Source: an uncultured Eubacteriales bacterium (GTDB taxonomy: Bacteria > Bacillota_I > Bacilli_A > RF39 > UBA660). From it: a DNA stretch of 64,000 nt. Where the stretch lies: contig CAJJKI010000007.1 of NCBI GenBank assembly GCA_905188025.1, positions 9,703-73,702 on the forward strand. Direction: 5' to 3'. The notes below the pieces were generated by a model. That model was given only the letters and a program-made list of their open reading frames with translations. It had not been told where the DNA came from and made no database searches. Both the position numbers and the translations under genes were made by a program. This document shows, in pieces, positions 33,909 to 37,842 of this stretch (position 1 is its first letter; every line of letters begins with the position of its first letter).

Positions 33909-35861
33909 ATGGTAAAATATAATTGTGTGGTGATGAAAATGAATAATCAAGAATTAACTTTATTGTCCGAAGGACAAATTTGGGGTAATAATAATGAATC
34001 TCAATTAGATGTAATGAAAAAATATGGAACTAAAGCTGCTATTACAGATTTATGTATTTTAACAGGCAGTTATTTATGTGAAGATACAGATTATAATATA
34101 GATGAGGATCGTTCTTTAACTGGTAGAACTAGTTGGTTTTGGGCTAAATCTGACGATGGTGATAATGATGTCCGCGCGGTCAGTGAGGGTGGTGGTAGGT
34201 GCTACAGATGTAGATGTATCCGCGATGGCGTTGTTCGCCCAGCTTTGCAATCTTCTGTAATCTTTTCCCAAATCTCCCCGAACAGAGTGAGGGGCTATAA
34301 CGATACTTTTGAAGTTGAATGTGGTGAATATCCTCAATATGCTGTTGATTCAGGAATGCAGAATATATTAGAAACAGAATATAATAGAGGAATGAATAAA
34401 ACAGGTAAAAGTTATACATTTGATTCAGTAAAATATGATGATTATGACACCGGATTTAAAGCGGTTACTTATGAAGAATATGAATATCAAGGTAAAAAAT
34501 ATATCCGCATAAGAGCTAATTCTGATTTTGGGGGTAATAGATTTAAACTTTCAAATGGAGTTGAATATAGAGATGGCGATTATGTATGGGTAGAAGTATC
34601 ACCAGTTAAGTGGTTAATTGATGATAGAACTGGGACTTTAATTTCTAAAAAAGGATTAGTTTCAGGAATTAGATTTCTTGATAGAAATCAAAATTATAAA
34701 GGTGATTTTGAAAGAACAGAAATGAAAGAATATCTTGATAGATATATGTCAAAGGATTTATTTCAAACTGTAACGTTGAAAAATATTGCTGACTTAACGC
34801 CAGAGGAAAAAGAAAAATTACAAAAAGAAAGAGAACAGCAAGAAAAAAGAAGAAATCCTTATGGTTTAAAGTTTGGGCAAGTTAGTGAAGAAGAAATAAT
34901 TAAAGGTGCAATAGAAAGTGGTGTAGCAGTATTCTTACATGGTCCTTCATCAGAAGGAAAATCTGCAAGGGTAAAACAAATAGATCCAACTTGTGAAATA
35001 ATTTATCTTCGTAATGCAACACCAGAAAGTTTGAATGGTAAAAGTGTTTATAATGGGGCAACAGGAGAAATGATAGATGTTCCTCCAACTTGGTTAAAAA
35101 AGTTACAAGAAAAATGTGAAAAAGAACCAGATAGGTACCATATTGTATTTTTGAATGAAATTACAAATGCACTACCTAGTATACAAGGTATAGCATTTAA
35201 TATAGTTTTAGATAGAGAAGTTAATGGCATTTGGAAATTACCAGATAATGCTAGAATAGTTGCAGCGGGAAATGATATGAAAGATTCACTAGCTGCAAAT
35301 CAATTAGCAGAACCATTATTTAATAGATTTGCTCATGTTTATATTAAAACAACAACTGAAAGTTGGTTAAAATGGGCAAGTGAAAATAATATACATCCTG
35401 CAATTTATTCTTATATTGCTTATAAGAAGGGTGAAACACTTAGAAGTAAATATGATGGTGAAAAACCTAATGCAGATCCAAGAAAGTGGGAAATGGCTTC
35501 TAAAATGCTATATGCTACAGGAAGTCCAGAGATGTTAAGGGCATTAGTAGGAGAAGATATTACAAGAGAATTCGTACAATTTTGTAATCAACAAGTTATA
35601 ACACTTGATGATGTTATTAATGGAACTTATACTGATAAAGATATACAAGCATTAAATACTGCTGAAAGATATGCTACAACTATGGGATTATCACAAGTAG
35701 ATGAAGATAATCTTGATAAAGTAAGAGGTTTTGTAACAGGGCTAGGTGCAGAATTTGGGGCAATTTTTGATGCTTTATGGACACATGGCGATGAGGAAAG
35801 ATTAGAAAGAATTGCAGAAGCAAAACTTGCTGATATGCCAAGAGGAGGTATAAGAAGATAA
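33909..35861 (+). CDS. fusion of a novel Cys-containing N-terminal domain (~330 aa) to a MoxR-like AAA_5 ATPase
   Basis: C-terminal half: Walker A LHGPSSEGKS, Walker B HIVFLNEIT, sensor-1 IVAAGND and an Arg finger FNRFAHV. The N-terminal half has no recognised match and includes GGGRCYRCRC in a locally GC-rich stretch. The likely true start is ATG 33933/33939 (tataat at -10, GGTG SD). Confidence 0.8.
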   Translation: MVKYNCVVMKMNNQELTLLSEGQIWGNNNESQLDVMKKYGTKAAITDLCILTGSYLCEDTDYNIDEDRSLTGRTSWFWAKSDDGDNDVRAVSEGGGRCYRCRCIRDGVVRPALQSSVIFSQISPNRVRGYNDTFEVECGEYPQYAVDSGMQNILETEYNRGMNKTGKSYTFDSVKYDDYDTGFKAVTYEEYEYQGKKYIRIRANSDFGGNRFKLSNGVEYRDGDYVWVEVSPVKWLIDDRTGTLISKKGLVSGIRFLDRNQNYKGDFERTEMKEYLDRYMSKDLFQTVTLKNIADLTPEEKEKLQKEREQQEKRRNPYGLKFGQVSEEEIIKGAIESGVAVFLHGPSSEGKSARVKQIDPTCEIIYLRNATPESLNGKSVYNGATGEMIDVPPTWLKKLQEKCEKEPDRYHIVFLNEITNALPSIQGIAFNIVLDREVNGIWKLPDNARIVAAGNDMKDSLAANQLAEPLFNRFAHVYIKTTTESWLKWASENNIHPAIYSYIAYKKGETLRSKYDGEKPNADPRKWEMASKMLYATGSPEMLRALVGEDITREFVQFCNQQVITLDDVINGTYTDKDIQALNTAERYATTMGLSQVDEDNLDKVRGFVTGLGAEFGAIFDALWTHGDEERLERIAEAKLADMPRGGIRR

Positions 35862-36253
35862 TGGAAAACAAAAGGGATATATTATTGTCATATATAAGAG
35901 CAAATGTTGCACCAGTATTAGTGGATTTTATATCTGGAAAAGATGTTAAAGGTGCGGTTGTAATACCTGCTAATATCGATAGTAAGGAATTAAATGGTCA
36001 TTATGATGGAATAGATTTTATGCCACCTAAATGGCTTAGTGAAATAACTGAAACCAATGAAAGTAAATTTTTAATAATAGATAAAATTGATTCTATTTCA
36101 AAGGAAGAACAACTAAAGTTTTGCGAATTGTTAGAACATAGAAAAATATCAACTTTTGAATTGCCAAAAAGTTGTGTGATAATTGTAACTGTTGATGAAA
36201 TTAATAAGGATAAAATAAACGAGGAAATATATTCATTAGTAGCACAAATATGA
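35861..36253 (+). CDS. small hypothetical protein (130 aa), middle gene of the AAA/vWA operon
   Basis: Its start overlaps the upstream stop (TAATG), which suggests translational coupling. No recognised motif. Confidence 0.55.
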   Translation: MENKRDILLSYIRANVAPVLVDFISGKDVKGAVVIPANIDSKELNGHYDGIDFMPPKWLSEITETNESKFLIIDKIDSISKEEQLKFCELLEHRKISTFELPKSCVIIVTVDEINKDKINEEIYSLVAQI

Positions 36254-36263
36254 GGTATAAATT

Positions 36264-37842
36264 ATGAAATATGATATAGAAGCTTTAAAGAGAAAAATGC
36301 TTGTTAAATATCCTTTCTTTGGTAGTGTAGTCGCAAGTGTTGATTATAAAGAAAATACAGGAATACCAACTGCAGGTACTGATGGAAGACAATATATTAT
36401 AATCCTGAGTATTTAGAGGGATTAAATCGTGATGAACAGACTTTTATATTTGCTCATGAGGTATGTCATATTGCATTTAACCATATATTAAGGAGTGAAG
36501 GTAAAGATCCAGAATTATGGAATATTGCAACTGATGGAGTAATTAATCAATTTTTAAAAAAAGATGGTTTGAAATTAGCACCAGGTGGTGTTGATATGGC
36601 AGATGCAATTAATTATGATGCTGAGCAATTATATGAAAAATTATTGCAAGAAAAAAAACAAAATCAAAAACAGCAACAAAGTCAAAGTGATTCTAGTAGT
36701 GAGGAATCTAGTCAAGGACAGACTCAAAAAGGAGATTCTGAGCTTCAAAGTCAATCTGGAAGTCAAGAGCAAGGAAATAACCAAAATGAACAACAAAGTT
36801 CTAGCGAAAGCCAAGGCGATAGTGATGAACAGAAAAGTGATTCTAAAAATCAAAGTAGTTCTGGAAGTAATAGTTCTCAAAATCAAAATCAAAATGTGCA
36901 ACAGAATCAACAAAGTAGCGGAGACAGTTCAGATTCTGAGCAACAAGAAGAACAAGATTCTTCAAAAAAAGATGTGGGACATGATACCCATAGTTTATGG
37001 GAAGAGGCAGTAAAAAAACATAAAGAAGAGCAGAGTAAATCTTCTGACAAAAAGGAAAGTCTATTAGATAAAATATTAAATAAACAAAAGGATAAACAAG
37101 AAAAAGAACAGAGTGAACTTGAAAAAAACAAGAAGAATTAGAAGAAATGGGCGAGAAAGATGCTTTTAAGAAAAATCTTGAAGATAAAAAAAAGCAACTT
37201 GAAGAATTAAAAGAAGCAATTTCTAAACAAGCATCACAAGCAGGAAATTCAACAAATAGAGGTATTAGAACAGTTAATGATATTGGTACTGCAAAACCAA
37301 TAGTTGATTGGCGATATATTTTGAGAGAAGCAATTAAATATGATATAGATTGGTCATATAAAAATGCTACATTAGAAGATGGAATTGTTACTGCTAATTT
37401 AGAAGAACAGCCAATGCCAGAAACTGAAATTGTTCTTGATACAAGTGGTTCAATAAATGAAGTATTATTAAAGAACTTTTTAAGAGAATGTAAAAATATA
37501 TTACAACATACTAAATTAAAAGTAGGATGTTTTGATACAGAATTTTATGGATTTAATGAAATTAGAACAGAAGAAGATATAGAAAATATGCGATTTGAAG
37601 GTGGTGGAGGAACTGACTTTGATGTCGCTGTAGGTGCTTTTTCAAGAAGAGTTGAAAATAAAATAATATTTACTGATGGAGAAGCTTCAATGCCAGATAT
37701 GTCAATTGATGCAATATGGATAGTATTTGGTGGTGAAAAAATTAATCCAAAAGGTGGTAAAGTAATTCACATTACACCAGAACAATTAGATAGGTTATAT
37801 TCATACGAAATTGAAAGTGAAACTAAAGGTAGATCAAGATAA
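36264..37842 (+). pseudogene. HExxH putative metallopeptidase N-domain + S/Q/E-rich linker + vWA-like domain (DUF2201-type MoxR partner), disrupted by two -1 frameshifts
   Basis: Segment 36264..36416 (frame 0) reads MKYD..PFFGS..TAGTDGRQYI. Frame 2 continues from 36383 with YNPEYLEGL..FAHEVCHIAFNH (HExxH), then a ~180 aa low-complexity linker ending at 37141. Frame 1 (37147..37842) carries the MIDAS-like VLDTSGSIN..GGGGTDF..FTDGE vWA fold. An RBS gagg precedes 36264. Confidence 0.7.

Follow-up and report, generated by a model that had tools for sequence, protein, structure and literature searches.

An apparent relic of a diversity-generating retroelement and its MoxR-like ATPase target operon in an uncultured Eubacteriales bacterium

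The 64,000-nt stretch of contig CAJJKI010000007.1 analysed here (positions 9,703 to 73,702 of the forward strand; hereafter the window) comes from an uncultured Eubacteriales bacterium and carries at 33836-37842 what is, almost certainly, the decaying relic of a diversity-generating retroelement (DGR) cassette and of the operon that was its target. The operon encodes a 650-aa protein, in which a variable N-terminal domain is fused to a MoxR-like ATPase, a small protein of 130 aa and a partner that combines an HExxH zincin domain with a von Willebrand factor A (vWA) domain. The explanation as a whole, in which a proposed sensor-type mechanism for the intact relatives is the weaker part, we consider probable. 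The ATPase/vWA system is little known, yet common in uncultured gut bacteria. Three features of the window are central to the argument, namely the first open reading frame (ORF1), the variable region (VR) within it and what is left of the reverse transcriptase (RT) gene:

33836..33874, plus strand: RT gene remnant, consisting of the last 12 codons and the stop (MDKLLFNLDKKI followed by the stop)
33909..35861, plus strand: ORF1, 650 aa, from the ORF call and the sequence
34169..34248, plus strand: DGR variable region, encoding aa 88-113 including GGGRCYRCRC

The window was compared with 75 related loci, which were obtained by searching a single genome from each GTDB species. Its VR aligns over 80 nt to the template repeats (TRs) of four of them (L018, L010, L007 and L032). 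Sixteen of the 18 mismatches to the L018 TR are located at TR adenines, and the other two are common to the window and its relative L082 and hence probably reflect this lineage's own TR. The mutagenised positions lie within 34182-34225 and are followed by a GC-rich 3' end (GGCGTTGTTCGCCCAGCTTTGC) that resembles an initiation of mutagenic homing (IMH) site; the IMH sequence is GTTGTTCGCCCAG. The template peptide VRAVNKNGNRNNKYRYKRNG has become VRAVSEGGGRCYRCRCIRDG in the window, and the GC content is 42.5% in the TR versus 58.8% in the VR. A preliminary description of this DNA had recognized a "Cys knot" in the N-terminal half of ORF1 and had correctly identified that half as the site of the most GC-rich stretch of the window, the peak 141 nt being found in 34141-34311 (51% GC vs 28% overall), from which it suggested a foreign or mosaic origin. 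Both the "Cys knot" and the GC peak thus represent footprints of A-to-N mutagenesis, the cysteines having arisen from AAY/TAY codons. The GC-rich stretch is the VR of a DGR, and the retroelement itself had been missed entirely.

A close relative of ORF1 (P0001 of locus L082, 98% identical) provides a further comparison. The two genes differ at 30 nucleotides, 21 of which are within 34182-34225, whereas only 9 are found outside the VR over ~1,900 nt. In the 80-nt segment that aligns to the TR, which contains 27 adenines, all 20 differences (20/20) are at TR-adenine positions. By our own arithmetic, the probability of this happening by chance is ~(27/80)^20, or roughly 4e-10. On this pattern, the window VR was evidently written by a DGR of the kind found in the relatives, and its diversification was evidently recent and has since been lost.

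The same region stands out in the wider family. The 121 closest homologues, the window included, contain 64 distinct VR peptides, and their eight most variable residues as measured by entropy (92, 94, 96, 98, 99, 100, 104 and 106) are all in the VR, where the mean entropy is 1.57 bits compared to 0.14 bits elsewhere. One VR peptide, which belongs to the L001 lineage, is found 48 times in this set. No GC-rich hairpin or cruciform follows the VR, as the fold of the sequence after it is no better than that of its shuffled versions (z +1.24).

The first lead to the retroelement was a small RVT_1 ORF that precedes the same three genes on contigs with an ORF1 homologue. A repeat search on such a contig gave an 80-nt direct repeat, with one copy at a site 5' of the RT and the other in the ATPase gene's N-terminal region. 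An Avd-TR-RT cassette is situated directly upstream of the ATPase operon in 13 related species, and the gene order in intact relatives, which are low-GC, RF39-type gut Bacilli that have not been cultured, is Avd, TR, RT, the fusion of a VR-bearing DUF6273 domain with the MoxR-like ATPase, the 130-aa degenerate AAA protein and the zincin (HExxH)-vWA protein. In the 10 species with an intact cassette, the TR (80-103 nt) is ~1.6 kb upstream of its VR copy in the ATPase gene. In L001, whose RT is internally deleted, this spacing is 1.35 kb. Of the 133 mismatches between TR and VR over these 11 loci (10 intact and L001), 121 fall on an adenine of the TR, a share that reaches 100% in 7 loci. In L032, 11/11 substitution mismatches are at adenines, accompanied by a one-base indel. 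The L018 RT matches RVT_1 with an E-value of 6.5e-16, and in PADLOC it matches generic RT/DRT models only. An Avd-like gene is kept 5' of the TR in 12 loci. From its content and mismatch pattern, we identify the cassette upstream of the operon as a DGR with the order Avd-TR-RT-target. Nearly all of the 75 loci come from metagenome-assembled genomes (MAGs) of gut Bacilli without cultured members, of "Tenericutes" or of "Clostridium sp. CAG", and one of these is a 1.46-Mb chromosome.

Two lineages display peculiarities of their own. In the most abundant one (L001-L006, 9081-9937), an internal deletion of ~270 nt has removed RT residues ~37-105, and the Avd gene and TR are kept. Its protein P0018 is identical on 77 contigs, 7 of its 19 TR-VR mismatches are at non-adenine positions, and its VR is the peptide found 48 times. 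In L032, the ATPase frame shifts at the start of the VR (~6264) despite an intact Avd-TR-RT cassette. This frameshift, associated with the one-base indel of the VR relative to the TR, may be a by-product of retrohoming.

The RT is lost in many of these species. Sixty-one loci, the window included, have 1.5 kb or more of sequence upstream, and a census of these yielded a full RT in 13, RT fragments in 9 and none in 39, the window being among the latter. With no RT near the operon in 39/61 loci, the ATPase system evidently can persist without the retroelement.

In the window, no TR, RT body or Avd gene was found anywhere in the 64 kb beyond the 12-codon remnant of the RT. As only these 12 codons and the stop are left, the window holds a DGR remnant rather than a DGR. 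RT residues 331-342 were placed at 33836-33871 by tblastn, and the assignment of this 3' remnant is supported by alignment with L018, L010, L007 and L001. The remnant comes directly after the terminator-like hairpin of an upstream gene of 224 aa. At the DNA level, homology to the intact cassettes begins at 33832-33839 and stops at 37841-37873. With the Avd gene, the TR and nearly all of the RT deleted, the VR was frozen as SEGGGRCYRCRCIRDG, and this frozen sequence explains the local GC peak and the cysteines.

The remaining genes of the relic and their motifs are as follows:

aa ~12-290 of ORF1, plus strand: DUF6273-like variable N-terminal region, followed at aa ~295-318 by a charged helical linker
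aa ~320-650 of ORF1, plus strand: MoxR-type AAA+ ATPase with a helical C-terminal region
34941..34964, plus strand: Walker A motif GPSSEGKS, at aa 345 of ORF1
35148..35159, plus strand: Walker B motif FLNE (FLDE expected), at aa 414, with Asp416 changed to Asn (AAT at 35154-35156)
35861..36253, plus strand: 130-aa ORF (ORF2), whose ATG overlaps the ORF1 stop in TAATG; translationally coupled
36264..37842, plus strand: partner pseudogene with two frameshifts, comprising DUF2201_N, an S/Q/E-rich linker and a DUF2201 vWA domain
36455-36469, plus strand: HExxH motif HEVCH, in the DUF2201_N part of the partner gene
37438-37452, plus strand: DxSxS motif DTSGS of the metal ion-dependent adhesion site (MIDAS) type, in the vWA part of the partner gene

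Other motifs of ORF1 are AAGND at aa 452 and GGGRCYRCRC at aa 94. The 650-aa ORF of the preliminary description, its motifs GPSSEGKS, FLNE, AAGND and GGGRCYRCRC and its TAATG overlap with the 130-aa ORF were confirmed by ORF calls and the sequence.

Both the ATPase and its partner have been damaged in this copy. Walker B residue 416 is an Asp in 76 of the 77 other family members and in P0001, and it is an Asn in the window. This D416N change is unique to the window lineage and is present in all its independent contigs. The partner gene is split into pieces of 50, 190 and 231 aa by single-A deletions near 36385 and 37121. In L082, there is one extra A at each of these sites, and the gene is intact and encodes 543 aa. 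The exact window protein is found on 10 metagenome contigs, and samples of the window lineage include SRR27538781, SRR27538727 and ERZ28662140. In the five contigs that were examined, originating from five metagenome samples, the VR, N416 and both frameshifts are the same and ORF1 and ORF2 are identical at every nucleotide, but the cps (capsule) genes differ. Sequencing error as the source of the frameshifts was considered and rejected since the same lesions are present in independent assemblies. Hence, the lesions are genuine and have become fixed, and the VR no longer changes. The earlier proposal to work with a repaired operon implied a need for repair, but the extent of the decay had not been seen: the RT, TR and Avd gene are deleted, Walker B has the D416N change and the vWA pseudogene has become fixed. 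Separately, the 3' third of the vWA gene (37178-37860) is only ~85% identical to that of L082, to which the window is otherwise ~99.5% identical, and this divergence suggests a recombination mosaic within the gene.

The N-terminal half of ORF1 had been described as matching nothing recognisable. In fact, DUF6273 matches the N-domains of 15 of 43 family members, with a best E-value of 5e-07. A search of PDB sequences with the N-domain profile gave nothing useful, and a Foldseek comparison of its model with the PDB gave nothing better than an E-value of 0.24. The domain is also found in other arrangements. Two tandem proteins of ~362 aa in L088 (P0219 at 8011-9102 and P0195 at 10001-11086) consist of an N-domain and a short helical tail with no ATPase, and are surrounded by housekeeping genes with no RT nearby. 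The 597-aa protein P0121 has two N-domains in tandem.

Assignment of the C-terminal half is less direct. It had been called a MoxR/AAA_5 ATPase, and the MoxR-like character is upheld by the modelled fold, whereas the match to Pfam AAA_5 is sub-threshold (E-value 0.025, 15 bits vs a cut-off of 22) and no Pfam family matches at an E-value of 0.01 or lower. Comparison with PDB sequences, either by single sequence or by profile, gave nothing useful, the profile search yielding only weak generic AAA+ matches, and the solved folds closest to the model are those of CbbQ and NorQ. The MoxR-type assignment rests on the modelled fold, according to which the ATPase is an AAA+ core with Walker A and B motifs whose fold is nearest to MoxR members. 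Walker A residues G33, K34 and S35 are invariant in the family, phage homologues included.

A profile check had been proposed for the 130-aa protein. The protein aligns with the ATPase core with an hhalign probability of 91.8% (E-value 7.5e-07, 123 columns); its match to AAA_5 is weak (E-value 0.26). It is a degenerate AAA+ core devoid of Walker A, and its gene follows that of the ATPase in most loci. The partner gene, described earlier as an HExxH-peptidase/vWA gene, does encode both domains after repair, the repaired translation matching DUF2201_N with 3.7e-36 (125.6 bits) and DUF2201 with 2.3e-13 (50.8 bits), both above the gathering score, although with its two frameshifts it is not one ORF. 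A vWA partner gene is found downstream of the ATPase gene in nearly all loci. No signal peptide, membrane segment or hydrophobic segment was detected in ORF1, the 130-aa protein or the vWA protein, and the system is therefore predicted to be cytoplasmic. None of the three proteins has a match in NCBIfam. In PHROGs, the ATPase half belongs to family 1297 (5e-47) and the partner to family 1314 (1e-68).

The family is large. Full-length homologues of ORF1 number more than 3,000, mostly ~87% identical, and clustering at 50% leaves 592 representatives with E-values of 1e-30 or lower, many of which span both halves of ORF1 and some of which have two N-domains. Thousands of homologues retain the 650-aa architecture in full. 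The module is patchy in its distribution, is located at varied genomic places, and is often duplicated and often decayed. The neighbourhood was examined by assigning Pfam families to a random 150 of the 210 ORFs that flank the module (two nearest ORFs per side, ~70 species loci). This census contained no recurrent partner, defence, mobile-element or phage family (capsid, tail or terminase) and no trypsin, caspase or EAD family.

Several loci depart from the common layout. Tandem arrays of two to five ATPase paralogues, some with repeated small and vWA genes, are found in L030, L033, L035, L037, L044-L046, L059 and L062. Three or four of the ATPase copies in L035 show 100% identity in their N-terminal 375 nt, including the VR, possibly as an artefact of the assembly. 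In a distant clade (L064-L079; Zhenpiania hominis and Bacillota MAGs), the fusion gene is followed directly by the vWA gene, and there is no 130-aa gene and no RT. Around the relic itself, the 224-aa ORF at 33051-33725 is paralogous to the C-terminal half of the downstream Fic-domain protein at 38356-39633 (28% identity over 205 aa, E-value 9e-23), and the DGR-target remnant thus lies between two copies of one domain. The Fic-domain protein matches the PADLOC candidate family PDC-S72 (1e-51). An identical ATPase operon is preceded by differing polysaccharide-synthesis genes in L083 compared to L084 and L086, and nearly all nucleotide differences are in a VanZ-like gene (32601-33005) bordering these genes, which looks like the recombination boundary of a strain-variable capsule locus.

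In the intact relatives, adenine-specific errors arise as the RT copies the TR, and the product replaces ~45 nt in the putatively lectin-like N-terminal domain of the ATPase, so that each lineage has its own binding surface. The following scheme would account for the architecture of these relatives. Each subunit of the AAA+ ring would display a single hypervariable DUF6273 domain, serving as receptor for a substrate or ligand. The small protein, AAA-like but inactive, may be an adaptor or regulator, and the vWA-MIDAS/zincin partner could act as a cochaperone and peptidase, so that bound ligands would be remodelled, cleaved or signalled. The likeliest ligands would be proteins of invading phages or other mobile elements. 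We infer a sensor or defence role from architecture and precedent only, and hold this mechanism for the intact relatives with somewhat less than even confidence. Its most specific form, in which these relatives possess an innate yet diversifiable cytoplasmic recognition machine, a MoxR ring with six substrate-recognition domains rewritten by a dedicated retroelement that captures and processes phage or plasmid proteins together with its zincin-vWA partner, is rather doubtful.

A number of observations weigh against this explanation as a whole. The 195-aa protein encoded upstream in L018 matches bAvd with an E-value of 8.5e-05 and 23 bits, which is below the cut-off of 40. The majority of the loci in the RT census (39/61) have no RT nearby. 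ORF1 and ORF2 of the window are still intact ORFs in an AT-rich genome, and a residual function is possible. A DGR elsewhere in the genome could still act on the window VR in trans, the window covering only 64 kb. The neighbours of the module are mostly housekeeping genes, and PADLOC-DB 2.0 has no match for the ATPase, small and vWA proteins of either the window or L018. With regard to the conflict system proposed earlier, such a character is plausible because the module is patchy, variably placed, duplicated and decayed, but none of the three proteins has a PADLOC match, and the immediate neighbours in ~70 species include no recurrent defence or mobile-element family.

Could the hypervariable ATPase have a purpose other than antiviral? 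It might recognise endogenous or environmental ligands, for instance in kin or self recognition, in regulatory tuning or in order to remodel surface or secreted proteins that vary. For NTPase systems linked to DGRs, alternatives of this kind have been put forward (PMC10907252, PMC7517822), the relatives lack a defence-island context, and the window copy is inside a strain-variable capsule locus. We nevertheless regard this alternative as unlikely, for diversification of a cytoplasmic binding domain, frequent loss and tandem paralogue arrays fit an arms race better, as does the precedent of DGR-MoxR-vWA conflict systems (PMC7159879). Less likely still is a phage origin, in which the module would be a homologue of N4 gp24/gp25 that functions in virion assembly or host takeover, its DGR would act on a receptor-binding DUF6273 domain as in the tentaclins of gut phages and the window would contain a prophage scar. 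The two PHROG matches point in this direction, and so do the 703 phage records with the ATPase half, which belong to the N4 gp24/gp25 module. In phage JWAlpha, this half adjoins a DUF2201_N protein, and the pair is also present in jumbo phages (PMC7824862). It is from the DGR targets of phages that DUF6273 is best known (PMC10743442), and a profile scan of the 2.9 million viral contigs of IMG/VR did recover one contig with the full cassette (a scan with a single protein gave no match). However, the phage homologues are at most 32% identical and have no N-domain, and the JWAlpha 122-aa ORF located between the ATPase and DUF2201 genes bears no similarity to the 130-aa protein of the window. The visible flanks of that single viral contig are an ABC transporter and a DUF285 protein and are non-phage, the protein has no virion-like features, and in the ~70 species loci the neighbours of the module are housekeeping genes, capsid, tail and terminase families being absent. 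The context found so far is thus consistently chromosomal and phage-free.

The preliminary description had viewed the operon as an intact or repairable nucleoside triphosphate-dependent conflict system whose Cys-knot N-domain was acquired by mosaic transfer, with no retroelement involved. It is true that the ATPase and vWA pair is real and that the GC content of the module (31-33%) is somewhat above that of its flanks (25-27%). However, the VR is exactly where GC content peaks, and the excess stems from A-to-G/C replacement of the template. The N-domain is an integral part of an architecture shared by thousands of homologues, the cysteines are variable positions, and an RT remnant is found upstream. 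Already contradicted by the adenine pattern of the TR/VR pair, mosaic transfer is highly improbable. A MoxR-vWA pair with a housekeeping chaperone function, like NorQ/NorD, CbbQ/CbbO or RavA/ViaA, that matures a specific enzyme complex is hardly credible at all. Although the closest solved folds are those of two such ATPases and a vWA partner is adjacent, the neighbour census revealed no conserved client gene nearby, no client enzyme syntenic across the family was found, and the genomic location varies. The module has been pseudogenised in the window, the RT has decayed in many species, and NCBIfam has no match. Furthermore, an ATPase subject to targeted hypermutation does not resemble any dedicated maturation factor. 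The remains of a DGR cassette and its target operon stay our preferred explanation of positions 33836-37842.

Most targets of DGRs are binding proteins located outside the cell. The idea of hypermutated "antigen sensors" in bacteria, which has so far involved only multicellular cyanobacteria and proteobacteria, is founded on targets that are cytoplasmic and linked to NTPases. The ATPase family described here, abundant in human-gut bacteria with genomes of roughly 1.5 Mb, puts the hypervariable domain directly on a MoxR-type motor. If these relatives did possess a recognition machine of the kind outlined above, DGR-programmed NTPase immunity would not be tied to multicellularity and would work in gut Bacilli that are unicellular and have reduced genomes. 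Natural "experiments" on the purpose of hypermutation are provided by lineages whose DGR is active, by others whose RT has decayed and whose VR is frozen, and by the fully decayed window copy. Also of note for annotation is that, in an AT-rich genome, a local rise in GC content accompanied by unusual Cys/Gly/Arg-rich codons can mark A-to-N mutagenesis and not foreign DNA.

The nearest precedent is the "VMAP ternary" conflict systems of cyanobacteria and gammaproteobacteria, in which DGRs diversify lectin domains of MoxR-vWA systems (PMC7159879, PMC10907252). As in our case, the targets are mostly cytoplasmic and sensing of invaders has been proposed; the diversified domain is lectin-like there and putatively so here. 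In those systems, however, the variable domain is of the FGS/CLec type and is C-terminal on the vWA protein or another protein, and a third protein, VMAP, has an N-terminal peptidase, cyclase or EAD domain, whereas here the variable domain is DUF6273-type and is carried by the ATPase at its N-terminus. Our system has a zincin-vWA (DUF2201) protein as partner, accompanied by a degenerate AAA protein, the only third gene being that of the 130-aa protein. The neighbours include no trypsin/caspase or EAD adaptor, and no VMAP component was seen, the VMAP profile itself not having been searched. The hosts also differ, being small-genome gut Bacilli here and multicellular bacteria there.

In the DGR targets of gut phages, DUF6273 is known as a lectin-like domain that bears the VR (PMC10743442, PMC11792537), and the same Pfam family bears the VR in tentaclins (PMC10743442), Faecalibacterium prophages (PMC11792537) and Toutatisvirus (bioRxiv 10.1101/2024.10.15.618418). 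In these, the VR is in the C-terminal part of DUF6273, and the targets likewise outlast the loss of the DGR. Unlike the ATPase fusion, which is cytoplasmic and encoded in a chromosomal operon, they are extracellular virion or receptor-binding proteins with Ig-like domains. With the N4 gp24/gp25 homologues and the jumbo phages, the module shares PHROG families 1297 and 1314 in adjoining genes. The jumbo-phage ATPase and metallopeptidase-vWA pair has been proposed to be an assembly chaperone and peptidase (PMC7824862). Phage ATPases, however, are ~345 aa long and have neither an N-terminal variable domain nor a linked DGR, and their function is at most proposed (virion assembly).

The cassette itself resembles the DGR of Bordetella phage BPP-1 (Mtd/Avd/TR/Brt) in its adenine-specific TR-to-VR mutagenesis, its Avd-like gene, the position of the TR beside the RT and the AAY-rich template codons. 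It differs in that the order is Avd-TR-RT-target, the VR lies close to the 5' end of its 1.95-kb gene without a GC-rich hairpin after it, and the target is an enzyme rather than a tail fibre. Another AAA_5/midasin-type target is found among the UVR4 DGR targets of the candidate phyla radiation, which match the Midasin AAA domain (Wu et al. 2018, PMC5758913). We liken the two by description only, as the VR fold of the UVR4 targets was unclassified and no operon partners were given in that report. The literature that we searched contains no paper connecting DGRs to DUF2201, or to MoxR in gut bacteria. In summary, the known theme of DGR-MoxR-vWA conflict systems appears to have a hitherto undescribed variant here, in which a DGR-diversified domain is placed N-terminally on a MoxR-like ATPase of the cytoplasm.

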